Assembly: GCA_965140935.1 (NCBI GenBank)
Contig: CBCSLL010001102.1
Span: forward strand, 25,393 to 44,266
Reading direction: 5' to 3'
Origin: Rotaria magnacalcarata
Lineage: Eukaryota
Length of the DNA stretch: 18,874 nucleotides
The notes beneath the pieces were generated by a model. It did not search any database and was not told where the DNA came from. It saw nothing but the letters and a program-made list of their open reading frames with translations. Of the stretch, positions 1 to 18,874 are shown piece after piece (within the stretch, counting starts at the first letter, position 1; the number at the start of each line of letters is the position of its first letter). The position numbers and the translations under genes were made by a program.

Positions 1-118
1 CAGGTTACCATAAAAAATCTCAGGGCAGGGTGTACACAAATGTCTACAGGGCAGGGCAGGATCAGGTTGCAAAATTTTTACAGGGCAGGTTACAGGTTAC
101 AAAAATGTTGCACCCTGC
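1..118. repeat. Cluster of short G-rich repeats: CAGGGCAGG three times and CAGGTTAC three times, ending in a partially inverted copy (caccctgcag); truncated by the window edge
   Basis: Direct reading of repeated 8-9-mers in the first 118 nt. GC content is above the local background. Confidence 0.5.
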
Positions 119-227
119 AGTGCTCTAGATGATTGATTAACTAGTCCTTCTAATCTTTTCACAAACGTATACTATATAATAGCTGTACTCATGTATTGGT
201 AAATAGTGTTCATACGTATATAGCGGT

Positions 228-248
228 GTATATATATATATATACATA
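228..248. repeat. (TA)n microsatellite
   Basis: gtatatatatatatatatac read directly. Confidence 0.8.
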
Positions 249-1339
249 TGCACTCATATTAGAAATTTTGCGTATTGTGTGAAGGATCGAAATTAAAATA
301 AAAAATCTCTCTCACTCTAAATTCAGCCATTCGTTATCTGTCAATTAACTCTGATGATGAGAAATGGATTCAGTTTCTACAATAACTGTAATCGACCATT
401 TAATAAACGTCATTATTAGTCATATTTCATTTAGCGACACAACTAGCTAAAGCAGCAATTATGCTTGTTTCGATTCATTAGGAAAAGTTACTTGATCTGG
501 TTGAGATGTGATTTGCTTTAGAAAAAACTAAAATTATCGTCAGATTCAATGATGTCGCTGAAGTACTCTGAAAGAAAGTAACAATCAACTGAAATGGCTT
601 TTCCTCTCGTTGCTTGTTTTTCTACAGAATTTTATTCAAAATAATATTGCGAGAAAGAACATCATTAATTTAAAAGGGCTTTTCTTTTTAAATTTTCAAA
701 CATTAGTTCGCATGGCTTAACATCGTCGAATTGATATTTATTAGCATTGTGATTGCATTTATCTTATTTGCTTTTGGTGCAGTGATATTTGTTGCAAGTC
801 AAAGAAGTGTTGACAACGCTTACATTATGGCTCCGACAATAATTATTGTCATAGAAGCCATATTACTGTTTTCTTATTTCGCTGTAAAAGCAAGTCTTAT
901 TTCTGTTTCAATTTTTTAATATAATTACTTTAATTCATTTTCAGACGTTTATCGTCAAATATAGTTTCAAATTGGCACGAATCATTAAAGCTAATAAACA
1001 GTTCATCACTCAAAAAGTCTAATTCTTCTTCTTTACTAAACTGTCATATGTTTCATTTGATCTACGTAGTATTCAATTTTATTCTGTAATATTAGCTAGA
1101 ATACTTTTTTCTCTCAGTAAATTGAAATAAATGTAGTATTATAATAATGAAATTATATGTCACGAAAAGAGGAGTATACTCTCGGTGAAAGAAATATTAA
1201 AACCATCGATCAAATCTAACGGCATTAATGAATTAGACTTATCTTCTTATGATAAAAAAATGCTTTATATCTGTTGAGAGTACTTGCCGTACATTCGATT
1301 GCAATTTCAGCAAGAAACATTCTGAACACGATGTACGAA

Positions 1340-1705
1340 TGCTAACTTAGAGATCTGCGTGACCAAAGGAAAAGGAAATTCTTCGATAATAGTTTCCACG
1401 GTGGATGTGAAAAAATAATTCTGTTTCGTGTTTTCTACTCGGAATTTTAAGCTCTTCAAAGTGACACTAAATAGTCGAGGATACAATCGTCTATGATGGA
1501 GAAAACTGCGGCGCATTCGTCACGACCGGTCGCGACAAATGTGCACCAGTTTTCTTCATCATAGATGTGTCATTTTGAAGAACTTAACATTGTGAGTAGA
1601 AAACATCAAGCAGAATCATTTTTTCATATTCACCGTGGAAATTGTTATCGAAGAATTTCCTTTTTCTTTGGTCACGACGAAATGGTTACGTAGATTTCTA
1701 ATGCT
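1340..1705. repeat. Long imperfect palindrome (hairpin-forming inverted repeat, foldback-like), centred on gaccggtc at about 1523-1530
   Basis: Left arm 1358-1470 (cgtgaccaaaggaaaaggaaattcttcgataat...ctgtttcgtgttttctactcggaattttaagctcttcaaagtgacac) is the reverse complement of the right arm 1560-1679. The central segment cgtcacgaccggtcgcgac is itself palindromic. Flanks (tgctaac, agatctctaa/agatttctaa) partly extend the symmetry. Confidence 0.75.
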
Positions 1706-2393
1706 AACACAACAGAAGTGAGATGTCAGTTGAATTATTTTACGAAATGCTTAAACATATGATCATGTACAGCGAATAGATGATTTTTTTTACTAAAATC
1801 TAAGAAAAATGAAGTGATGACATCTATTAAACATCGTTGTATCATGATGTTTTATTCGTTTTCGAACAATTACAAACTTCATAAATACAATGAGTTTAGT
1901 TTTAGGCTCCGTCGACGCTCACCATCATACCAACATCCATACTCTAAAAATGATTACGTTAGCAAGAATTCAGTGAAAGAAAATATTGTTATCGACGACC
2001 AATATTTTTGTTTATATTACTGTAAAATATAACGGAAATCTGATGATTTTAGTATTCTATTCCTCATCTATATGAGATCACAAAATTTTTTATGTCAAAC
2101 AAAAATCATTTGCAACGCACAGCAGCATGCAAGTGGATCATTGAAAATTGAATTCATCATTAGAATTTAACTAAAGGTAAATTCTAACGCAATGCCAACG
2201 CCTTATGAGGATTAAACAATATTTTATACAACATGGAAATTATTTGTTTTTGAATTTGGCGGCATGGATCACCTGTCGTGGTGTCAGTTACTCTTAAGTA
2301 GATGTGTAATCGCAAGATCGTTTATGGAATGAGCTTCTAGTAAAAACTTTGCCAAATCAAAACACGATCTGCATCTTTTATTGAGCACAATAT

Positions 2394-3241
2394 GTAGGGT
2401 AAGTTACCCTAACAACAACACTAAAAAAATGACACGACTTGATTGATTCGGTGTACATATATTTTATATCCGACTGAAATTATTCTTACATGTGCATAAT
2501 CCTTGGAGTGTCCTCTTTCGAATGGTGAAACAACCACCCTTAACTGAGCTGTAGTGACTGAGAAAGCAGCGGTCTAAGAAAAGAACCTGTATCTGCTGTT
2601 GTTAGGATTCATTTTCCTAGTAGCAACGCTTAGCTATTTTTTGAGTATAATAACGGCGCATCATTATGAAAATAATGTCAGAGAATTTATTCATAAATAG
2701 CATATCTATTTATAATCGTTGTATAGGAACGATAACAAACTCAACTAGTTGAGTGTTGTTATTGGGGTGAAAAAATAGTTGGTTGTTGTTATTAGGGACA
2801 AAATTTCTTTTTCGATTTTAGACCTTCTTGTTTAAGAAAATTTATTTCACTCAAACTAACAACGAGTTTTCATGAATCTTTGGTCAATAAGAGAGATCGA
2901 CACGCTCTACAAAATTGCTACAGACATCTCTCGTGTATCTCTTATAAGAAATGTGAAAAAAACGTTTTTTTTTCTTGAAAAAGATAAATTTCCTTGAACT
3001 TTTTTAGTGTTGCTATTAGGGAAATGAACCATAACAACAGCAGATGCAAGTTTTTTTCGTAGACCGCTGATTTCTCAGTCACTACAGCTCAGTTAAGGAT
3101 GGTTGTTTCACCATTCGAAAGAGGACACTCCAAGGATTATGCACATGTAAGAATAATTTCAATCGGATGTAAAATAGATGTACACCGAATCAATCAAGTC
3201 GTGTCATTTTTTTAGTGTTGTTATAGGGTAACTTACTCTAC
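2394..3241. mobile_element. Foldback / MITE-like non-autonomous element: about 235-bp inverted arms (2394-2632 and 3007-3241, roughly 95% identical) around a 374-bp core carrying degenerate subrepeats of the arm-terminal motif (gttgttattaggg / ttataggg)
   Basis: The reverse complement of 3007-3241 aligns base by base with 2394-2632: gtagggtaagttaccctaacaacaacactaaaaaaatgacacgacttgattgattcggtgtacat...agcggtct...ctgctgttgttaggattcatttt. There is no ORF inside and no obvious target-site duplication. Confidence 0.6.
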
Positions 3242-3976
3242 CGGTTACTACACTGTAAAAAAAGTCATCATCCTATCGACTATACATACATGTAGCTTTC
3301 ACACATTAAACATAGCGCGTGTGCATTTCTTGAAACAAACTGAGCTATACATACGTATATCCACACTTCTAGGGTTAATTTTTTTCTAAAAAAAGTTAGT
3401 CATAATCAGTAAGCGTGAATGCGTGTTTATTCAATTAACCTCAGCTTGAAGTCTATTTTTTTTTCATCGAAGAATACAAAATATTCAAGAGTTTCTTGAT
3501 TAAAATAAGATAAGTATTAGATGATAGTCATTCGGAAATAATTGAAGCCGGTTAGAATCAGTTCTCAGAGATTAGTACGATCAATACCGACGAGTAAATG
3601 TTGAATGAACGGATGCCATGATGAATCTCTCAATTCTAATTGTCTACAATAGATACCATTACGTTGGCACGCCTGCTGATAGAATTCGATTGCCTGTTTT
3701 ATTTTTCCATTCATGTTAGCCGGTAAACAGTTGCAAAGATTGATCTTAATGATAGAAGAGAAAGTTGAATGAAGAATGAAAATACCGAAAAAAGAAATCG
3801 AATCACTTTGATTTGTTCAATACTAGTTAACATTTCAAACATATTCTGTTGTAATGATTGTGTTTTAAGAAAGAGCCACAGAAGAATGACACCAGTACCA
3901 ATCAAACGAAGAAGTTCGTTGCGCACATTCAAAGCTAATAAAATAAAATTCGTTTTTCTATACATCAATATGAAAA

Positions 3977-6926
3977 TCATCGAATATTACCGAGTGAATT
4001 AAAACCTTGTTCACGCAAATAATGTTCAAGACGATTAAAAATTTCACAATCGATATGAAGTACATCAGCTAACTGTTTATTCAATATAAATGAACCATCC
4101 TGTATTTGAATTCAATAAAAAACAAAAAATAAGTGCCGTAAATGATAATTTATACTACCTCATATTGAAGTTGCATAATCGCTTCAATCATAGTTTTTGT
4201 AGATTGAACATCTTTGAGCTTACCAAGAAGTGTATCATCGATTGTTTTACCTAAATTCATGAATTATCATAGTTTCTTTTGAGAATACTAACAAGACATC
4301 GACGAACCTAACGTAGTAGCAAGTTCACCCGAAAAATTATGTATTACAGTTTCGGTTTGGCCGTCAAGCTAACAAAATGAACAACAACAGAACAATCGAA
4401 TTACAACAAAATGATACGCTACGCACTGTGTACAATGGATCCTCAGGCTTGCGATCATAAACTGCAAAATAGAAAGAATTAAATATCATTTTTTTTTTGA
4501 AACACTGACCAGATTTAGCTTGGAAGTCTGCATCGCTTTGGACATAAGCAATATGTCGTTCAATGTCATCTACTGACGATCCTAGAAAAGTTTAAAATAT
4601 ATTTAAAGATCAAATGAAAACAAATCGAGTAATTAACGTACTTGCGACATCACCAGGGTTGATACTAATGGATGCTTTGGCACCTGAACGTGCTTCTTCG
4701 GCATCAACTCGAATTATACCATTCGCATCGATCTCCATTCTAATAGCTATTTCGAGCGTCTGAGCAGCAAAGTTACGTGTTAGGCCGCTCAGACACAGTT
4801 CTCCCAACAGTAGCTAAAATAGAAAAAAAACACTATAGAATGAAGTTTATCCATTTAGTTCACGACATACATTGTATTTTGTCAGATTATGTTCGCCTTC
4901 AAATACGCGAATAGAAGCTGTCGTTTGATAGGCATAAGCATTGGTGAATATTGAATAAAATTGAGTTCGCGTTGGAATCGTTGTATTACGACGAATAAGT
5001 ATGTGCATGCGACCGTGAGTATCTTCTACACCCAAGCCCAGTGCACAGACATCGAGGAGTAATAGGTCGTGGATGGATGCTTGTGATGTCACCTCAGCTT
5101 TGGTTGCCCTGTGAGAGATCAGCTTTTATTTTTATTATCATTTAAAATAATTTCACAAATAACGATTAACGATTAACATTTAACCGTTGCGCATATCTGT
5201 GAAATCTTACAGTACTTACGTTCTTCGTTGTTTTTTCTTTTTACGTGACATCATATGTAAGTCTGTACTTTCTGATTCGGCGTTTTGCATATCACTCTCA
5301 TCAAAGCCTCTCTAGAAGCGAGTGAAAGTTTTGCAAAAATATTGCATACTCAGTTACATACTTCAGCCACTTTGAACGCTTGCTTCATTGACGTATTCAT
5401 TCTTTTGCATGAGGTATCAGATAAGGTACTCATGGGAGCTTTCGGTTGTAGTACCTGAGCTGCCTGCATGTAGTAGCCACTACTACTACTACTATCACAA
5501 ACTGCTACAGATGCTTGCTTTGATGACGATGATGAAAATGAAGGAGAAAAAAGGTTTTTAAAATAATCTAGGCCAGATGACGATATTGGTGAGATACCTA
5601 GAATATATAAATTTATGCAACTATCAATCGATCCACAAGAATAATATGTTGAACTATGATAAATTATATTACTACCATAGATAAAGTAATGAAATATCGT
5701 GATCTTTTAGATTTGCGTTATTATATTTATCATATGTCTACTGAATGAAGATAAAGCTAAGATGATTGCATATCACTTGGAGACAGTGTTTCTTTAGAAA
5801 ATATTGTCTACCTGGCTTTGGTATGGAGCGAAGATGATTGCATAAACTACAGTCTACTATTATAAAAAATAGATTTAGAATTTTTTTAACTATAATTTTT
5901 CGTGATTATTTTTTGAATTTGTCTTAGGAAACTACATTATTTACAAAGGTATTACACATCTATTCAGAAACGACAGGTCTAATAGTAAACTACTGCAAAC
6001 TATCCACCGCATATTCATTATACATATAGCTTGCATTTATGAAATACAACATTATTTACATTTTGTATTCCGAGCTGTGCTTTGTATTTCAATAGGACAA
6101 CCAATAAGAGCAATCCTACGAAAAGCTAACTATATACTACGAAATATACCATAGACTTCTAATGGACGCAACCGATTCAAATATATTATGGCTACAATGA
6201 AACTTCAGGAGTAACATAAATCGAGGAAATGATACTGATTGCGAAAGAGAAGTAGTAGAAGTAGCGGCTTTTGCCATTTCTAGATATCGTAAGTTCATCG
6301 ATGATAGAAAATGGCAATGCCGAGTACAGAAATTAGTATTATTCTATTTGTGACTCACCAGCTGCTGATTGAGAATTCATTTGTGATGCCATATTCAGAA
6401 AAGTTGCGTTGTTATTATTGGTGTTGTTTATTATTTGATCTGCTGCATCCTTCCTTAGATTTGATGCATTAGCATTCATAAACATATTCTGAAGCTGTTC
6501 ACTAGTACCAGGGGCTGCCATATCAGAATAGGGCTTTGATGTATCCATTGAGGATGTCGGCGAAGAGAAAAGGTTTGATATTAAACCTCTATCTCTCAAT
6601 ATAGATCTCTTTTCTGCAAATTGTTGTCGGTATACCAGTAGCTGTTGCCGCTGCTGCTGCGGTGGTAGCGGTGGTGGTGACATTCTCATTGACAGTGGCA
6701 TTGGCGGTGGTGGCGGTGGTGGTAGTAGTGGTGACATTGACGTTGGCATTGGCGGTGCCGCTGATACTGACATTCTCATTGACATTGGTATTAGTGGTGC
6801 TGGCGGTGGTGATGACATTCTCATTGACAGTGCCATTGGCGGTGGTGGCGGTGGTGGTAGTAGTGGTGACATTGACAGTGCCATTGGCGGTGCCGCTGAT
6901 GATGACATTTTCATTGACATTGGCAT
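3977..6926 (-). CDS. Gene 2 (10 exons, 562 aa): N-terminal Pro/Met/Ser-rich tandem-repeat and Q/N/S-rich low-complexity region joined to an Hsp70-type substrate-binding domain (SBD-beta plus helical lid). No Hsp70 nucleotide-binding domain is present. Exons on the minus strand: 6359-6926, 5362-5597, 5220-5311, 4871-5108, 4642-4813, 4510-4581, 4427-4461, 4308-4368, 4159-4250, 3977-4099 (stop included)
   Basis: All junctions are canonical GT-AG with consistent phases, and the total of 1689 nt is 3 x 563. Translation of 4871-5108: ...TATKAEVTSQASIHDLLLLDVCALGLGVEDTHGRMHILIRRNTTIPTRTQFYSIFTNAYAYQTTASIRVFEGEHNLTKYN. Translation of 4642-4813: LLLGELCLSGLTRNFAAQTLEIAIRMEIDANGIIRVDAEEARSGAKASISINPGDVA. 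Translation of 4510-4581: RSSVDDIERHIAYVQSDADFQAKS. These align with the Hsp70 SBD (HSPA8-like DLLLLDV...KRNTTIPTK...VYEGER...LLG.FEL.GIPPAPRG.PQIEVTFDIDANGIL.V.A.DK.TG....ITI.NDKGRLSKE.IERMV). Introns are 38-63 nt, except the 761-nt first intron. The 3' lid exons are less certain. Confidence 0.7.
4642..4813 (-). CDS. Gene 2 exon 5: remainder of Hsp70 SBD-beta (LEIAIRMEIDANGIIRVDAEE...ISINPGDVA)
   Basis: ORF 4610..4807. Acceptor ttttag|CTACTG at 4813, donor GCAA|GTACGT at 4642. Confidence 0.75.
4871..5108 (-). CDS. Gene 2 exon 4: start of Hsp70 SBD-beta (DLLLLDV...RRNTTIPT...VFEGE)
   Basis: ORF 4847..5092 extended upstream to the acceptor ctctcacag|G at 5108. Donor AAT|GTATGT at 4871. Confidence 0.75.
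6359..6926 (-). CDS. Gene 2 exon 1: ATG at 6926; Pro/Met/Ser-rich repeats, then a Q-rich and N/S-rich low-complexity tail, ending at a G|GTGAGT donor
   Basis: ORF track 6339..6926 (MPMSMKMSSSAAPPMALSMSPLLPPPPPPPMALSMRMS...QQQRQQ...NNTNNNNATF...SQSAAG). The donor GTGAGT at 6358 splices in phase to 5597. No in-frame stop lies between the upstream acceptor-like ttaatag at about 6990 and the ATG. Confidence 0.6.
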
Positions 6927-6948
6927 TGGTGGTGCTGGCGGTGGTGGC
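6679..6948. repeat. Coding tandem duplication: 2 x 135 bp (each made of two ~67-bp subunits), encoding 45-aa repeats MSMRMSSPPPAPLIPMSMRMSVSAAPPMPTSMSPLLPPPPPPP on the minus strand
   Basis: gacattctcattgacagtg[g/c]cattggcggtggtggcggtggtggtagtagtggtgacattgac... recurs at 6679 and 6814. All three minus-strand frames and one plus-strand frame are open only because of the repeat (ORFs 6589..6966 and 6662..7006 are artefacts of it). Confidence 0.85.
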
Positions 6949-7080
6949 GGCTGAGATGCTTGCCAAGATTCACTTGATGATGGAAGTAGTGGAACTATTA
7001 ATATGAATCAAGGTGAATGTTTTTATATCTCGAATAGAAATAATGGGCTGTAGTAAAATCTGGGCTCGCAGCAGCCTTTC

Positions 7081-7161
7081 AAAAATATATAGGAATATAT
7101 GGGAATTGTTAGACCTCAAATATATAGGATCGTCCTCGGACATATAGGAAATATATGGGAC
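7081..7161. repeat. Cluster of three ATATAGGAA(A)TATATGGGA-type motifs in direct orientation, about 55-bp spacing
   Basis: aaaaatatataggaatatatgggaattg ... aaatatataggatcg ... catataggaaatatatgggacgc. Confidence 0.6.
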
Positions 7162-8221
7162 GCTAATATTTCGTTTAAAAATAACTAAGCATGTAAAAAT
7201 CACTACTACAGAATGGTAGGTGATGTTCTTATAACGTACCTCGACTCACCCAAATAAAAATACAGCTTTGTTATGAAAAACAGTAGTATGGCAGTATTTT
7301 ATACAAAGAAGAAATAATTTATGTTCGGTTAACCTTCGACTATTTCACAGCTACATGCAAGGAGAAAACAGGTGAAATCGGATTCTTTTTGTTGATTTTC
7401 CTTTTGATTTTTCTAATTTTAAACCAACTGATTTTAAGCGAAGAAACTCAGAAAAAATTTTTAAAATTGAAAAAATCGGAAAAATCCAAAGAAGCAAAAA
7501 GCAGCCCCATTTCAACTGTTTCACTCTCGATTAACATTTTCAAGCACAAAGATTAAAAATTTTAGCATTCTCATTGATTTGTCTGATGTTTTTCATTTTC
7601 ATTTTTGATTTAAATCAAAAAGTCAGTTTTTCCTCCCTTGCCGACATATCATAAAAATATTATAAAATTGATTGAGATAAAGATCACAAAAATACTTTCT
7701 TTTAATGTAAAGCAACAATCGATATCTTTTGTCAAGACTATTATAATTTCTAACAGTCTCAGAGCTATATAATCGAAATGGATACATATTTAAAGCACAG
7801 CAAAATAATCGGTTTAGTAAAAGATAATCGATGCATTGGTAAAAGTTTTCTTCGTTTCTGATGCTACTTGAAAATAAACATCACCGTTTCTAGTACTGTC
7901 AAACATAGTAGAATCACTTTCTAGCTGTATCTTTCTTTTGTCTTAATATCACTTTTTTTGAAACAAAATTCATCACAAATATTTAGATTAGCATGCACTC
8001 TTTCACTGTTTATTGCAATAAATACTGACGAAACACATGCAAATCTATACATTGGTGTTGAATTTTTTCTTTTTTAAGTGATATTAAGATAGAAAAATTT
8101 AAAGAAAATATTGGCCTTAGTGCTTTATATTATGATATGAACGCCGCTGATAATATTTAAACAACATGCTAGGCACTTATTTGAAGGAAATATGGTTCTT
8201 TCCACAATAATCTTTAATTTT

Positions 8222-8304
8222 TTGAAAAATATAGGAATATAGGAAAAAAGCTCAAAATATAGTCTATTATAGGACTAACTTGAAAAATATAGGAAATATA
8301 GGAG
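8222..8304. repeat. Second cluster of the same motif (TTGAAAAATATAGGAA(A)TATAGGA twice, plus a degenerate copy), same orientation, 1.14 kb from the first cluster
   Basis: ttgaaaaatataggaatataggaaaaaag ... aatatagtctattataggac ... cttgaaaaatataggaaatataggaggac. Confidence 0.6.
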
Positions 8305-8874
8305 GACTGCGATGCCAGAGTAAAATGTATTCGGATAAATTAAGAACGATTTGGTAGCGTAGCTCCTTTATGACTACCATTTGAAACTCACATATATTAT
8401 TTTGCTTCCCTAAGCGAATGCAAACTATATATAAAGTAAAAACTCTTTCGTAGTGTTTCACAAAAGATCTGCATACATCTAGAGCATCTACTTCCCGCTA
8501 GAAATGAAGACAGAATGCTATAGGCTTAACTTCAAATATCACCTGTAGTTGTTGTACTGGTATGGCTCATATGATAAAGCGGTGTTGACATAGCAGATTT
8601 TGATGAGCTTTGACATCGTTCCAATGGTTCTGAAATGCGATAAAAATTAGACATTAGCATGTCAGAAGCACCCCTACGTGGTTGTAGAGGCATCGTGGAT
8701 GGTGCAGCAAATGACTCTGTAAAGAGATTAAAGAATATAGAGAAATAAGCTGGAAGCTAAGAATAATCTCACGTAAACTTCGCCCTGTCCTCTTTTCGTT
8801 CATTTCTTTTTGAGGAATTTCCTTTAAATTTTGCTTCAATTCTGATTTCGAAAGTAAATAAAATAAAATAGATT

Positions 8875-11754: not shown

Positions 11755-12755
11755 GAAATACAATTGCTGGATAATTATAACTCAGCTTGCTGTTCGTCGA
11801 ATAATTTGTTGCTCAATCTTTCGTTTAAAAAAATCTCGTTTTACTTTGGATTTGGGTAAAAATGAGAAGGTTTATTTGTAAGTGTCCTGTTACAATTTTT
11901 AATATTTTATTATTTGAATCAATCAAAACAAGAACTGAGATGTTTCCTACCGGCATATTTATTAAATCTGCTTAAGTTTCAGCTGAAATGAATAAGGATG
12001 TAGAAAATGATTTTCATGTCACTCTCACCCTTCAACACACTGTCTTTCAACATAAAAGTCTAATATGTGTATAGTGTATTAATTACCTATATCAATACGT
12101 GACTTTTTATCCTTTTGTGATGATGAAAGTTCGATACGATCTATGCATTGGTTTTGTTCGACTATCTGAACAAGAAATATTAACTTTTGTAGGAGTCCGA
12201 AAATCAGAAATGATTTTATTAAATTACCGAATCGGACATGTTGAGTGCCAACTGTTTTAATCTAGCTATTGATTGACTACATTCCAATAGATTAAGATCT
12301 AGTAAAACAAGATAAAAAATATTACTTGGAAGAAAAAAATTGTTTTTTTTCACACTCTACAATTGCGACGTTTAACAAAATTCATATAAAATGAGTAACG
12401 ATCTTCATTACTATGAATGTTTACCTTCTCGATTTCATTTAATCTCAATTGCAAACATAAACTTTACTAATATCCATTGTTCATCTAGAGGTCATACATT
12501 CTGATTAGAGCAAAATTGAATATTAATATAGTATTGCTATCTCGCATGTTTTCCAGATTATTATACTACTCTAAACTCTTTCTATCCATTTAACAGCATT
12601 GTCAAAGAACAACCGATTGATCGAGTGAGAGAAAACTAACAACTAGGGTAATGAATTGTTTTTTAAATTATCTGTGACATTCAGAATATCTAAGCACTAT
12701 TTTATTGTCATTTTTTTCCTTCACGAATACGATCGAGTTCTTAGATTTATTGTTA

Positions 12756-15700
12756 TCACTCAGTTTTTTCAGTAATAGTTTCACAGCAGCGTTGGTACCG
12801 CAAAGAGCGTACTATATATAAAAATAGAATCACTGAGATGCTGTAACATGCTTAGACTATAAAAATCAATCTCTTCTGTCTTTTTCTCTCGATTGTAAAT
12901 TAAAAACTCTTCTTACCATCATCTTCCAGGAATTCTTTCATTCTAGAGAAATAATAACAAGTGTTGTTTTCGAATTCAATCTTTCTGCTTTGTTACATAC
13001 TCTTCGTTCGTTGTGATCCTTAAATTGTTTGCTGCACATCGTTGTTCTAATGCTTGTCGTTCTTCTGTTGTCGCGCTGAGCATCTCATTCTTTATATCTA
13101 TTTTATAATTTTTTGAAATAATAATTCTTTTAATTTTTATTCTCACTGAATCAACATACCGTTTCGCATTTTATCTTCAAGTTCATTTGCTTTATCACGT
13201 TCATTTAATGAATGACGATATGTACGTATAATAGACATCATCATGTCGAATTTAGCATCACCACCTGCTCGATAGGAGATTTTCTTACAAAGTTTTTCAA
13301 TATCAACAACCGATTCTTTTTTGCCAAGAATCGATGCACTTTCAAGTGAAACACGACCATCGATTAGTTTCTGTTTAATTAAAGCCAAATTTGATTTATC
13401 ACCATCCCATTCTATGTATGGTAATATATCGACATCTCGATCAAGCATAACATCGATGAGACGAACGCCTAACATTGAACAAAAAAATCTAGTTATCATA
13501 GAATATGAGTATTCTACCAACCTGGTTGGAGAGTCGACTGATCTGTTTTGGCATCACGTTCTTCAATGGCAACAAAACTCGTATATGGACTGACAACAGA
13601 ATAATTAATACTCAAATCTATGAGATCTTGTTTACATTGAATTTTAATCAATTCGTTTTCGCTTTCGTCTTCATGTAATATTCCGTTTTCATAATCGTCA
13701 ATTATCGCCCGTGCGGTTAGACAATGTAGAATACGTCCTCTAGTTGTTGTCATTGGACTACTGAATACAGTAGTGACAAATTCTTGCCCATCGATAGTCG
13801 CCGTTAATGTTGCTTTATGGCAATTATGAATAAATCGATAGACGCTGAGTCGCATTCCATCGAACAAAGATCGAATCATTTTTGGTGCTTGCATATTGAA
13901 TTTTTGTCCTTCGTCCAAACCACCATGCCAATCAATCGATATGCTCGTAACACATGGTTGTCGGGTATGTTCGAGAATCTCCAATACTTTTGTTTTCCAC
14001 TTCGATCGATAGTTCGAATCGAATATTGTTACTAGACCACCTCCTCGTATCCCACGAGTTAACTGTTTCAGCCCATGTTTGTTAGCAACATTTCCAATTG
14101 AACATGCAAATAAACGATCACAGCGCATAGTTGATCGATGTTCAAGTAGAGCAATAATCGAATTAACATCATGGATATGTCCATCAGATAAAAGAATAAA
14201 TTGGCGACCCGATTTCGACGACGATACAGATGGTAGCAATGAATATCGATGAAGAACTGCTAACAAATCTGTATTACCACGATGAATAAGTGAATGCTAG
14301 AATATAAGAATTTCATTACAAAACAAAACTCATCTCAAACACAAAAAATACCAACCAGAACAAAATGTTTGGCTTTATCTAGGTTCTCTTTTGTAGTTAG
14401 TGTTGAAATTGGAAAACATTCATCATTATCTAAATAGTTCAAATTTCAATAGTAGGCAAAATAATATGGTTGACTATCATCGTATTACCTGATCCAAAAG
14501 TAACTACATTGAAATATGTATTTTTATTATCAACTTTCAAATGAGTAAGAAATAAATGAGCTAACTGTTTAGCTTGTTGAACATGACTACCATCCATTGA
14601 ATTCGATACATCGACAATGAAAATAATTTCAACTGTTTCGTTCGACATCGATAATGTTTCGAATCTTGGATAAAAAGTAAGTAAACATGCTTCAGAATCG
14701 CGATTGTTCGATGTCGTTGTTCCATTGTCATCATCTAATGTCCATGTTTCATTTGATATTCGAGGTAAATTAGCACTTTTAAGTGTTACCGAAAGAACAA
14801 AATCTCGATCGAGTAAAACATTATCGACAAGTTCGACCATGGCCATACAATCGGTCAGTTTTCGACGAAGACGATGTGTCGGCGAAAACAATTTGATTAT
14901 TTCATAGGGCATTCGAATAGATGTTTTAAAACTGAATTCGACTTTTTCATCAACAATATCAATAGATCGTACAGTCGATTGATCTTTTGTTTCAATGGCT
15001 TGTTTCGATTGCCATGAAGCCATTTTTGCTGGAAGTCGAAAGATAATATCACCATTCTCGATTTCTAATTCGGCAACATAGGTTATTTTGATAATGACTT
15101 CATTGTTGGCTGGTAAGTTACCAACAGCTACGCTGAATACTTGAGCCTGCTCCTGATGCATCAAATAGGCACCGTGACCTTTTTCGATTGCTTCTCGATA
15201 TTCTTGTTTGGCTTGTTCTTTCTCTTTGACTACACCTTTAATAATTTTATTATTGATATGTGCTTCAAAACCACATACAGTTGAATTTTCATCAAGTGGA
15301 AACACATATTTAGCTTCAATAGGTATTGAACTCGTATTATGATAGACTTGATAGAGAACAACCTTATCGATGAAAACAAAACAGGATGTGTTAGTTGATC
15401 AAAGTAATAGCTATAATTACTTCAACTGTAGCATCGACGATTTGAGCTCGAATATGAAATGATTTCAGTGGTACAAGTTTGCCCGATGATGGGCATACTA
15501 AGCCATAGTCTTGTTCGGCTACTTCAATAATTTCATCGTCAATTGTCAAAGGAACTTCGACTAGAATTTCGTAGATAACCTAGCTGAATTTTATTAGAAG
15601 ATAAAGAATCATTATTACCATGTTCACTGAGTTTCAATGCATGTTGCTCATGATGAACAACGGGTAAACGTTCCAGTGCAATATTGATATTATCATTTGG

Positions 15701-18197
15701 TATCCATGAAACTTCCACAATGTAGAGTAAACGTTGTTGATCGAGTTGATAAATTGCATATTCATTATCCTATTTCAATAGAAATCAGATTTTTTATTCC
15801 AACATTTAGCATGTTGGTATAAGTGACACTGATCCGACAATTTCGTATCTAGTTTTATTGAAAATAATGAATACAAAGATATAGGACACAATGTCAAATA
15901 TTGATCTCTCTCTTTTTTCTATTGTATTGCCACGACATTCATGGCTACTTGTTCACAACTATTTTTCTTCATATTTTTATCAAATATTTGTTGAAACTCT
16001 GGCAGTGATACACGATAAAAGTGCTTTCCACAAGCATTCGCGAATGTAATATTATCAGACATAATACAAGCAAACTACTTACGCTAAACATGGAACGATT
16101 TTCTTCCGTTCGTTTGACACCATGCGTACTATGAAAACCATCAGGAGGTTTGGTGATTGTCGGTGAAAATGAATAATAATTAGCTGATTCACCGAGGGCG
16201 ACTTGACAAACACATAGTAGTCGGCGACCTGGTCGCGTTGTGCTAGCTGTCGTATATTTTAGCGACGTAGAAACAGAATCAGAAAAGTAAATTCCGTAGC
16301 CAAGACAACCAATATCAGTACGCACCACACCTAATTCTTCAACTACCATTTTTGGCATGGCCAAACCACTGAATGCATACATTCACACAATAGATATTGT
16401 CTCGAGAGAAAGATGAATAGTTTACCGTGAAAGAATTCCAAGAAAATTGGCATATTTTGATCCGTGAAATAGTTGCTGTTGATTTGATAGTGATGTTCGA
16501 AAGTTGAGTGCATCTGTTTGTTTGGCTACGCTGAATATTTGATGAATAACGATTTTTTCACCACTAACGAACAGAGAGAAACCGATAATTGTGAAATCAA
16601 AATTCAATTCAACTCACTTATCTGTTGACGATTGAATATGTTCAGCAACATTCATAAATTCAGGTGTTGAACTATCGACTATTTCAATATGACAGTTCAA
16701 TGCTCGATATTTTGCTTCAATTGGAGCTTTAGTATTCCAATTGGTTAGTTCATTGACTGTGAGCATATCTCGAAGTAACTAAAAGAGCAAAGTGTTCAAT
16801 GAAATTATTAAAATAAATCGACATACCTGACATAAGTCAATTTTTTCAGTTAGTGCTCGACGATTTTTTACGAGGTCAACCTTATACTCCGCACGATGAG
16901 GAATAAGTGAATAGAAACGAAGTGCAGCAGCAGGATCATTAGTTGACTTGAGTTCAAGTAGTGCAGCCTCAGCTTCAATGATCTGTTCAGTAGTTTGAAA
17001 TAAAACTTAATTGGAATACATAAAAGAAAATGAATATATGCGTACAGTTTTGAGAGTAATCGATTCAGGTAATACGCTCAATATTTTATTCAAATCACCA
17101 ATCGATTCTAACCAAATCGATTCAATTAATTGGCATACGTTATCGTCGAGTATTTGTGTATCAATACGATTAGCAAATAAAGACTAAAAATATTTTATTT
17201 AGTATTGAAAATAAAACTTCCTAATTAATATCATTGGCTTACACGTAGTAATAGTTTTGATCCCAATTTATCTGGTAACATTTCACGAATTCGTGTTACA
17301 CGTGGCATTTTAGCTATTCGATAATAGTATGATGCAAACAGTTGTTGTTGTTCGTTGGGTTCATCACCGAATGCATATTGTATCAATACTCTATTATCTT
17401 GCTTTTGTCCTTGTCTTACAATAGTCTGCTTTTCGTATCGAAACCGTAATCGATAATCAGTCATTGTTCGATCAAAGTATTGTTCCGGAATAACTTGAAG
17501 TTCAAGTACGAAAAATACCTCTGAATTGTCATTAGTTTCCTATGAAAAATAAATACAATAGAAGCACATTAAAGCGATAAAAGAATAGAATTTTACTTTG
17601 AAAATGGCCCACTTCGCTATTTCACAATGTGTCAATTCATCAAAACGAGGTAAATCAACATCGTCTGCATTCCATAGTTTGATTTTATTCAAATCAAATC
17701 GATTAGCTTTAATGCTAGTTGCTTGAGATCCTAACAAGGAACGATGTACGACATCAATCAAAACACAAGAGCAAATATATGATACCTGCAACGGAAATAG
17801 TGCCTGTTTTTGTAAAATTCTCCTGATCTTCAACTGATTTGACAATAAATTTGCTAATGTCAATTGGTGTTTGACCCGCCTGTAAACGCCGACATTCATA
17901 TACATATTCAACATTGACCAATGGCAAGCCAAGTTGCTTTGCACGACGGACTTTGTAGCTATCGAAATTATTCGTAACCAATATGTAGTCAGTCTAGAAC
18001 AAATTCTATTAAGACAGCATTTTATGTAGAATAGAAGAACAACGTACACTAGCAGTAAGTATATATGAAATATGTGCTTGCTGTTCTCGTAAATAGTTGA
18101 TCAAGTCTTGTTTAGCCTTGAATCCTATTTCACGACCGAGCTCGAGTACAATTGTTTTACCATTGAATGGCGATAAAAGTGTGGCAGATACACTCAT
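12756..18197 (-). CDS. PARP4: Gene 1 (18 exons, 4170 nt, about 1389 aa): PARP4 / vault poly(ADP-ribose) polymerase-like protein with BRCT - PARP helical plus catalytic domain (H-G-S, Y and NEY catalytic residues) - VIT - vWA - C-terminal tail. Exons: 18048-18197, 17786-17993, 17597-17730, 17243-17539, 17046-17183, 16827-16982, 16618-16778, 16426-16563, 16083-16368, 15619-15769, 15421-15560, 14489-15362, 14356-14429, 13522-14296, 13160-13468, 13001-13097, 12917-12942, 12756-12811
   Basis: Every junction was read as GT-AG with consistent phase, and the exon sum is divisible by 3. BRCT: NGKTIVLELGREIGFKAKQDLINYLREQQA... and TDYILVTNNFDSYKVRRAKQLGLPLVNVEYVYECRRLQ. PARP signature: QQQLFHGSKYANFLGILS|RGLAMPKMVVEELGVVRTDIGCLGYGIYFSDSVSTSLKY...RRLLCVCQVALGE...KPPDGFHSTHGVK...|DNEYAIYQL. 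VIT: VEVPLTIDDEIIEVAEQDYGLVCPSSGKLVPLKSFHIRAQIVDATVE|VVLYQVYHNTSSIPIEAKYVFPLDENSTVCGFEAHINNKIIKGVVKEKEQAKQEYREAIEKG. vWA: EIIFIVDVSNSMDGSHVQQAKQLAHLFLTHL...NVVTFGS...DLLAVLHRYSLLPSVS...ILLSDGHIHD...YSVVSPYTSFVAIEER. The last three small exons (12756-13097) are the least certain. The gene symbol reflects domain architecture, not a database hit. Confidence 0.8.
13522..15362 (-). CDS. PARP4: PARP4-like exons 12-14: VIT domain and von Willebrand factor A domain (14489-15362, 14356-14429, 13522-14296)
   Basis: ORFs 14439..15305 and 13514..14266 extended to acceptors cgataag|GTTGTTC (15362) and tattctag|CATTCAC (14296). A 74-nt micro-exon at 14356-14429 keeps the frame (...NVVTFGS|DNDECFPISTLTTKENLDKAKHFVL|HSLIHRGNTDLLAVLH...). 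Confidence 0.7.
15619..16563 (-). CDS. PARP4: PARP4-like exons 8-10: PARP catalytic core (H-G-S motif, donor-loop Tyr, catalytic Glu in NEYAIY), exons 16426-16563, 16083-16368 and 15619-15769
   Basis: ORFs 16422..16607 and 15969..16382 are joined by the CG|GTAAAC donor and cattcag|T acceptor to give ...GILSRGLAMPK.... Donor AGC|GTAAGT at 16083 and acceptor gaaatag|GATAATGAATATG at 15769. Confidence 0.8.
17786..18197 (-). CDS. PARP4: PARP4-like exons 1-2: N-terminal BRCT domain (spans one 54-nt intron at 17994-18047)
   Basis: ORFs 18009..18197 and 17754..17981. Donor AGT|GTACGT at 18048 and acceptor ttgttctag|ACTGAC at 17993. Confidence 0.75.
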
Positions 18198-18295
18198 TTT
18201 TTTGTGTCTAAAAATTTAGTAAATTTTTATCTTGTTTTCAAGTCGAATAGAAAACTAAAATAGAATTTTCTGCTGTAGTCTGACTACATACTCAT

Positions 18296-18310
18296 CGTTT
18301 ATAAATGCGA
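18296..18310 (-). promoter_or_regulatory. TATA-like element (TTTATAAA) about 105 nt upstream of the PARP4-like ATG. A strong acceptor-like aaatttttag sits 10 nt upstream of the ATG
   Basis: Plus strand cgtttataaatgcgagc reads TATAAA on either strand. Position only; not verified. Confidence 0.25.
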
Positions 18311-18700
18311 GCATTTTATTTCTGATGACTAATGCGGTTATTTATTATTTTAGCGAAAGAAAAAGAGAAAATAGGTTATAGACTTCAGATTTTGCTATTT
18401 TTCTTTATGATTCTACACACTTCGCACGTGTTGTGTTATTGCACAAGCTGTCGTAACACGTATATTATAGGAATTTAAGCATGTTGTGCATCAGAACCTG
18501 GCTACACAATTTACGATAGATGCCATTACCAATCTAAAATGTCGGCTGGTTAAATATTTACAAATTTTACAGTGAAATACATTCTCAACAAGTAAAATGT
18601 CAAGAACTATGTAATGTAGACTATGAGTATGATTAGAAAAGCCAATAGAATTCACCAATGAACTCCTTCAGCGAAATGTGAAGCATTTAATATATGGAAG

Positions 18701-18874
18701 TGGCTATGTACACTCAGGTGCACATAGCCATGTGGCTATATGCACTTGAGTACACATAGCCAGTTGGCTATATACACTTAGGTGTACATAGTCGCATGAC
18801 TATGTGCACTCAAGTACATATAGCCGACTGACTATGTACACCTAAGTGTGTATAGCCAACTGGCTATGTGCACT
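18701..18874. repeat. Tandem array of alternating inverted 13-mers (TGGCTATGTGCAC / GTGCACATAGCCA) with 2-4-nt spacers. It consists of about 5.5 hairpin units of ~31 bp, each internally palindromic, and runs off the window edge
   Basis: tggctatgtacac tcag gtgcacatagcca tg tggctatatgcac ttga gtacacatagcca gt tggctatatacac ttag gtgtacatagtcg catg actatgtgcac tcaa gtacatatagccg ac tgactatgtacac ctaa gtgtgtatagcca ac tggctatgtgcact. Confidence 0.85.

Follow-up and report, generated by a model that had tools for sequence, protein, structure and literature searches.

The analysed DNA, referred to below as the window, is an 18.9-kb stretch of the genome of the bdelloid rotifer Rotaria magnacalcarata. 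It is AT-rich (~33% GC) and carries intron-containing animal genes on its minus strand, namely a PARP4-like gene (~13000-18200), in which Pfam recognizes PARP, VIT and VWA domains, followed by an Hsp70-fragment gene (~3590-5130; Pfam HSP70). Their closest protein relatives, at 78-87% identity, are found in the bdelloid rotifers Rotaria sp. Silwood2 and R. sordida and in metagenomic and Logan contigs. The order PARP4-like to Hsp70-fragment gene is kept in five related rotifer contigs (L001, L002 and L024-L026), and the alignment of the window with these contigs is confined to the two genes. The spacer between them (gene limits 12995-18518 and 3480-5130) is several kilobases longer in the window and holds an insertion at 7060-8318. 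A GC-rich (50%) tandem repeat with a 135-nt unit, present in 2.1 copies at 92% identity, lies at 6661-6946 within long open reading frames on both strands, and it may be a repetitive coding exon.

Transposons are abundant in this neighbourhood. The insertion at 7060-8318 (within 7052-8326) is a 1.26-kb non-coding element flanked by a perfect 8-bp duplication, AGTAAAAT. It has terminal inverted repeats, CTGGGCTCGCAGCAGCC / CTGGCATCGCAGTCC (also readable as CTGGGCTCGCAGCAGCC / GGACTGCGATGCCAG), together with subterminal ATATAGGAA(T)ATA motifs, and it looks like a non-autonomous transposon of the hAT type. An 848-bp foldback-like element occupies 2394-3241; its 237-nt arms are 93% identical, its termini (TAGGGTAAGTTACCCTA) are each a mini-palindrome, and an internal motif, GTGTTGTTATTRGGG, is repeated, while no flanking duplication was seen around it. 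The minus strand of positions 1-117 reads CAGGGTGCAACATTTTTGTAACCTG followed by repeated CCTGCCCTG motifs, and this segment looks like the terminal and subterminal part of a transposon that the edge of the window truncates. At the opposite end, 18700-18874 consists of palindromic tandem units of 32/64 nt (GGCTATGTGCACT...AGTGCACATAGCC) which run past the end of the window and resemble the arm repeats of Foldback-type elements.

The subject of this work is a palindrome near the left end of the window. A search for inverted repeats found two outer arms of 110 nt each, 1358-1467 and 1567-1676, which are 87% complementary, and an inner pair of 38 nt, 1490-1527 and 1528-1565, with 84% complementarity and a spacer of 0 nt. 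In a gapped alignment, both pairs merge into a single interrupted palindrome of 319 bp (1358-1676), with a left arm (1358-1527) starting with CGTGACCAAAGG and a right arm (1528-1676) ending with CTTTGGTCACG. The symmetry point lies at 1527|1528, within cacGACC|GGTCgcg, and the self-complementary centre that had been noticed previously is thus confirmed as GACC|GGTC at 1524-1531. The alignment covers 149 positions, with 128 matches and 21 mismatches (16 transitions and 5 transversions), which corresponds to an arm-to-arm complementarity of 86% and a Kimura two-parameter (K2P) distance of 0.16. The preliminary description spoke of a 340-bp near-perfect palindrome with arms at 1358-1470 and 1560-1679; the palindrome is real and these coordinates hold to within a few bases, while 'near-perfect' was an overstatement. 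The emphasis then placed on the instability of such structures is likewise weakened by an arm divergence of ~14%.

The two arms are not fully symmetrical. A 21-nt stretch at 1468-1488 is confined to the left arm and has no partner in the right one, and a 15-nt segment at 1677-1691, ACGAAATGGTTACGT, occurs only at the right end, is unpaired in the predicted folds and holds a degenerate second copy of the motif CGTGACC. Beyond this right-only segment the inverted repeat resumes in the form of terminal repeats, TTAGAGATCT at 1347-1356 and AGATTTCTAA at 1692-1701, which pair with each other in the minimum free energy (MFE) folds and are complementary at 9 of 10 bases. The complete unit therefore comprises 355 bp, from 1347 to 1701, and its plus strand is taken here as the one on which the arm mismatches are mostly of the G:U type.

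As had been predicted, the whole segment folds into one long hairpin. The MFE of the DNA is -116.7 kcal/mol, compared with -37.4 +/- 4.5 kcal/mol for shuffled sequences (z = -17.8; 0 of 100 shuffles were as good), and the plus-strand RNA reaches -211.6 kcal/mol (z = -26.8), with no shuffle folding as well. A low-stringency blastn search revealed no further copies of the palindrome within the 18.9-kb window and agreed with the earlier statement that it is unrelated in sequence to the 848-bp element at 2394-3241. Tandem Repeats Finder reported no tandem repeats within 1340-1705; only the short CGTGACC motif (GGTCACG on the other strand) recurs.

Immediately outside the terminal repeats lies a pair of perfect direct repeats, AATGCTAAC, at 1338-1346 and 1700-1708, a putative target-site duplication. 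The right repeat overlaps the last two bases of the right terminal repeat, and since the element ends in the same two bases with which the flanking repeat begins, the length of the duplication is 7, 8 or 9 bp, depending on where the element is considered to end. A direct 9-mer repeat abutting two points 354 bp apart, with a tolerance of +/-3 nt, occurs at 18 of 18374 window positions (p ~0.001). Both this duplication and the true ends of the unit at 1347 and 1701 were overlooked in the preliminary description, as was the strand asymmetry discussed below.

Downstream of the orthologous Hsp70-like gene, none of the five related rotifer contigs contains the palindrome or any similarity to its arms, and from this comparison of sequences we conclude that the window copy is a lineage-specific insertion. 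One of these contigs, L024, has a unit of its own just downstream of the Hsp70-like gene, a 255-bp segment (11812-12066) with 38-nt terminal inverted repeats (89%), whose sequence is unrelated to the palindrome of the window.

A second copy was found through a public protein record. The element is non-coding, as its longest open reading frame (69 aa, in the left arm) has no real homologue. A word-based protein search returned nothing for it, and HMMER, run against 1.84 billion representative proteins, gave a single match, P0133 (E = 3.8e-9). This match was rejected as a real protein, since three in-frame TGA codons had been translated as Trp. P0133 is a 173-aa 'hypothetical protein' encoded at 772-1293 of a low-GC, eukaryote-like contig, and it is an artefact whose reading frame spans both arms of a palindrome. 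The earlier opinion that the frame at 1307-1516 (minus strand) is not a gene is accordingly upheld.

The contig in question, ERZ12298644 scaffold_165630_c1 (here L027), and its twins L028 and L029 come from a single metagenomic locus (32% GC) that was recovered in several samples. Positions 932-1311 of L027 match window positions 1344-1703 on both strands in blastn, and the L027 copy (934-1309) is itself palindromic. Homology between the copies begins at the left terminal repeat and stops at the right one, and these limits coincide exactly with the termini that the window sequence by itself had indicated; neither blastn nor tblastx detected similarity between L027 and the window flanks outside the element. 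Two loci thus share identical boundaries within unrelated surroundings. Of the four ends that the two copies have between them, three show the sequence YTAGAGATCT or TTAGAAATCT.

Comparison of the copies also shows which peculiarities are old. The right-end-only segment is conserved at the same position in L027, as ACGGATTAGTCACCT, so that the asymmetry is a feature of the family and not a private insertion, and the common ancestor must already have been this asymmetric palindrome. In turn, the 21 nt found at 1468-1488 of the window are present in both arms of L027, which means that the right arm of the window copy lost them. The L027 copy has its own 23-nt deletion and ~22 extra nucleotides at its centre, including a 6-nt AAAATT spacer; given this spacer and extra sequence, the spacerless centre of the window copy is not ancestral.

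In both copies, inspection by eye shows CGTGACC at the outer ends and again next to the centre (window 1358-1364, 1520-1535 and 1670-1691; L027 946-952, 1085-1121 and 1279-1298). At the right end of both copies, and to the left of the centre in L027, the motif is doubled with a ~15-nt period. It is possibly a binding site for a protein.

Visual inspection revealed no recognizable target-site duplication around the L027 copy. That locus is repeat-rich, with a ~340-bp unit in 1440-1780 bounded by GGCGGCGGAACG / CGTTCCGCCGCC, and a short GT-rich hairpin (L027 1310-1375) directly adjoins the palindrome, possibly the reason why no duplication is seen.

The search for more members of the family relied on an nhmmer profile built from the four arms, used in place of a covariance model as the alignment exceeded 400 columns. 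The profile matched window positions 1348-1527 on the plus strand and 1680-1528 on the minus strand, and it revealed no additional copy in 230 kb of compared sequence. A metagenome scan with a 20-mer common to both window arms gave 21 matches, all of them attributable to chance (20-32 nt, with no second arm); this 20-mer is absent from the L027 copy and hence not conserved in the family. Scans of the bacterial/archaeal and viral contig collections with two degenerate 24-nt patterns gave no match. The family is known from only two independent copies, one per locus, and the target-site duplication from the window copy alone.

These data bear on two explanations in which the palindrome is not an element at all. 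The first is an assembly or amplification artefact, that is, a chimeric inverted join or a collapsed read. Apart from the general risk raised in the preliminary description, nothing speaks for it, and it can practically be dismissed. An artefactual inverted join would give identical arms; here they are ~14% diverged, with 21 of 149 positions differing, mostly by transitions, and with two indels of 21 and 15 nt, so the palindrome is not an assembly artefact. A similarly asymmetric palindrome with the same right-end segment also recurs in independent metagenome assemblies from several samples. The concern about an assembly collapse is in this way answered without recourse to long reads.

The second explanation assumes that the sequence was never mobile and that, following a DNA break, fold-back (snap-back) priming at a short natural palindrome, GACCGGTC, produced a local inverted duplication on the spot. 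In favor of this scenario, double-strand breaks are frequent in bdelloids, the window holds a single copy of the unit, and its spacerless centre sits on an 8-bp self-complementary sequence. Hairpin-mediated foldback inversions have been documented in yeast, and they resemble the rotifer palindrome in being inverted duplications centred on a short natural palindrome (PMC7467729). The yeast events are rearrangement junctions on the scale of chromosomes, whereas the rotifer unit is bounded, 355 bp long and provided with terminal inverted repeats and a flanking duplication, and it occurs at two loci that are unrelated. Fold-back priming produces neither a flanking 9-bp direct repeat nor terminal inverted repeats. 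It is also contradicted by the L027 copy, a homologous palindrome which shares both ends and the right-end asymmetry of the window copy in unrelated flanks, and whose spacer and extra central sequence indicate that the spacerless centre is not ancestral. We regard this origin as very improbable.

Taken together, the discrete ends with their terminal inverted repeats, the duplication that flanks them, the homologue found in unrelated surroundings and the absence from the syntenic sites lead to the interpretation that 1347-1701 is a copy of a small, non-coding, almost wholly palindromic, foldback-type (MITE-like) family of non-autonomous DNA transposons in a bdelloid, to which we assign a probability of about 0.65. 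The element shows several traits of a MITE: it is small (355 bp), it has no coding capacity, and it ends in inverted repeats, with arms inverted throughout. Among the origins proposed in the preliminary description, the foldback element is the one that agrees with the terminal repeats, the 9-bp flanking repeat and the occurrence of a homologue with identical ends elsewhere, at an unrelated locus. A palindromic-amplification breakpoint and a hairpin-ended transposon remnant lack support, as the unit is small, complete, bounded and old. There are also observations that sit less easily with the transposon interpretation, as the L027 copy shows no recognizable duplication, neither an autonomous partner nor a transposase was found, a spacerless centre is unusual for MITEs, and an excess of G:U mismatches on one strand is unexpected under a purely DNA-level, cut-and-paste life cycle.

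According to the transposon interpretation, a transposase acting in trans would recognize the TTAGAGATCT termini and perhaps also the repeated CGTGACC motif. Insertion would occur at a staggered cut, whose repair would duplicate (AA)TGCTAAC, and the predicted pre-insertion (empty) site reads ...CACGATGTACGAATGCTAACACAACAGAAG... / ...GTACGAATGCTAACACAACAG... What keeps the arms alike would be either exchange between them, through gene conversion within the molecule or repair templated by the hairpin, or else selection on pairing. Read-through transcription of the plus strand would yield a double-stranded RNA stem of ~150 bp, a natural substrate for RNA interference.

The TA duplications of Tc1-mariner elements, including Made1 as a mariner derivative, and the TTAA duplications of piggyBac do not fit this element. 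Its duplication length would fit P/Galileo-like (7-8 bp), hAT (8 bp) and Mutator/Foldback (9 bp) elements, with which it is compatible without discriminating among them. The TAGAG terminus fits the hAT rule, 5'-YARNG-3', and this resemblance was rejected as too weak to be used for classification of the superfamily.

The arms of this family have changed together. Within a copy they are 86% (window) and 83% (L027) identical, compared with 74-78% between copies. Among 126 ungapped columns, 11 show a site pattern that sets the two arms of one copy apart from those of the other copy, compared with 3 and 0 columns for the two remaining groupings (p ~7e-4), and RNAalifold, applied to the two sequences, found 13 base pairs changed on both sides between the copies. 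Such co-changing arms could reflect either gene conversion between the arms or selection on pairing, and two sequences cannot separate these causes.

The mismatches that have accumulated between the arms are strand-biased. On the plus strand of the window copy, 12 of them are of the G:U type and 4 of the A:C type. The homologous strand of the L027 copy serves as a replicate, with 14 and 4, respectively (combined 26 v 8, p = 0.003). The bias is visible in the predicted RNA structures as well, where the plus strand is favored in both copies: the MFE is -211.6 vs -178.9 kcal/mol in the window and -191.5 vs -163.9 kcal/mol in L027 (gaps of 33 and 28 kcal/mol), while the gap between the DNA folds of the two strands is only 6.7 kcal/mol. 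Counted in the MFE folds, G:U pairs number 15 on the plus strand and 4 on the minus strand in the window, and 15 and 5 in L027. As a control, the neighbouring 848-bp element showed no clear bias (G:U vs A:C 9 v 5 in the whole alignment, 7 v 5 in the arm at 2394-2630), and a regional mutational asymmetry was rejected as the cause on this ground.

Changes that could be polarized, i.e., those in which a single arm differs from the other three, comprise on the plus strand 11 A>G, 1 T>C, 4 C>T and 5 G>A. CpG decay was rejected as the source of the mismatches, as only ~4 of 11 G/T sites lie in a CpG context and the CpG observed/expected ratio of the whole window is 1.09, with no CpG depletion. Editing by ADAR was rejected as the source of the A>G changes, as the 11 sites show no neighbour preference (5' C4 T3 G2 A2; 3' T5 A3 G2 C1).

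The same sites bear on a further alternative, in which the hairpin was copied through RNA by SINE-like retroposition, with A-to-I editing of the double-stranded RNA before reverse transcription leading to A>G changes on the sense strand. The ratio of 11 A>G to 1 T>C on the plus strand is what this scenario would predict, and target duplications of variable length are compatible with retroposition. It is nevertheless hardly credible, even less so than fold-back priming, as the A>G sites lack the ADAR preference and number only 11, and as the element ends in inverted repeats and carries neither a poly(A) nor a simple-repeat tail.

A more substantial competitor is that the copies belong to a family of long hairpin RNA loci (hpRNA/endo-siRNA precursors or another structured RNA), transcribed from the plus strand and with the stem under selection, whose mobile origin is possibly ancestral while any constraint today would act on the RNA. 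The G:U asymmetry, replicated in two independent copies, speaks for it, as do the preference of the RNA folds for the plus strand next to nearly equal DNA folds, the distribution of G:U pairs in these folds, the 11-13 pairs changed on both sides and the lack of a clear bias in the neighbouring control element. Additionally, Argonaute and RNA-dependent RNA polymerase (RdRP) families are greatly expanded in bdelloids (PMC7943196). A stable plus-strand hairpin, as required of hpRNA and microRNA loci, is also predicted here.

Against the hairpin-RNA explanation, the double changes are equally well explained by gene conversion between the arms, which is usual in inverted repeats, and there are two sequences only. 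Selection on pairing would favor A>G and C>T changes alike, and C>T changes (4) are not above G>A changes (5). The element matches no Rfam family: an E-value search of positions 1-4000 with Rfam 15 gave noise only (MIR5998 at 24.5 bits vs a gathering threshold of 180), and no tRNA or known RNA family was found. It is not conserved at the syntenic position in relatives, and T6 runs in both arms speak against a Pol III unit. On balance, we hold this explanation to be doubtful. The same tentative standing applies to its mobile variant, an hpRNA gene spread by transposition, in which the plus-strand hairpin RNA would feed the expanded bdelloid RNA interference and the stem would be kept by compensatory change. 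What the one-strand G:U excess hints at, as a lead and not a result given two copies, is that a single-stranded form of the plus strand, most plausibly RNA, is or was relevant.

Several known systems help to place the element. Made1 of the human genome is a nearly perfect palindromic MITE of 80 bp, derived from Tc1/mariner and the source of mir-548, and it has been reported to be processed from both strands (PMC1784062). The rotifer element shares with it a small, non-coding body, two inverted arms with a tiny loop, a stable hairpin predicted in case of transcription, and a flanking target duplication, which in the rotifer is putative. It differs in length (355 vs 80 bp), in duplication (7-9 bp vs TA), in its asymmetric right end and in the G:U bias of one strand, and no parent autonomous element is known for it. 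Another example of nearly palindromic MITEs is provided by the Caenorhabditis elegans repeat families listed as 'PAL' in Repbase.

Foldback elements are similar in other respects. Galileo, a foldback-like member of the P superfamily, makes 7-8-bp duplications (PMC4168063), while Tm1 of root-knot nematodes, a Mutator/Foldback element, makes 9-bp duplications, has MITE-like members of <0.5 kb without a transposase, and has arms that within one copy are on average 93% alike (PMC3169594). The rotifer element resembles Drosophila Foldback, Galileo and Tm1 in its very long inverted arms, its putative 7-9-bp duplication and the similarity of the arms within a copy. Unlike them, it has no middle domain, its placement does not rest on transposase homology, and Tandem Repeats Finder detected no tandem sub-repeats in its arms, which is why we do not file it under Foldback, Galileo or Tm1. 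The target consensus of Galileo, GTANTAC, is not matched by the rotifer TGCTAAC.

A similar architecture, a long and almost completely paired inverted repeat on which Dicer would act, is found in Drosophila hpRNA loci and in plant microRNA genes derived from MITEs or inverted duplications (PMC3086885, PMC3237417); in the rotifer element, wobble is tolerated on one strand specifically. The rotifer element is set apart from them in that its RNA hairpin is a prediction from sequence and in that it is not conserved at the syntenic site. Neither blastn within the window nor a protein word search found a target gene resembling the arms.

The rotifer palindrome is thus real, old and bounded, and it most likely represents an ordinary kind of element, a small non-autonomous transposon that lies between genes. 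Bdelloid genomes contain many diverse transposon families of low copy number, and a survey of eight species, using a separate program, classed <1% of unclassified repeats as MITEs (PMC7943196). Earlier gene-scale 'palindromes' in bdelloid assemblies were partly suspected to be scaffolding errors (PMC7953838); the present case indicates that kilobase-scale clusters of hairpins in bdelloid intergenic DNA can be real, old insertions rather than assembly faults. Less ordinary are the arms that changed together and the G:U wobble tolerated on one strand only. If the G:U excess and the co-evolving arms hold genome-wide, they would suggest that hairpin RNAs carried by transposons feed into the unusually large Argonaute and RdRP repertoire of these asexual animals.
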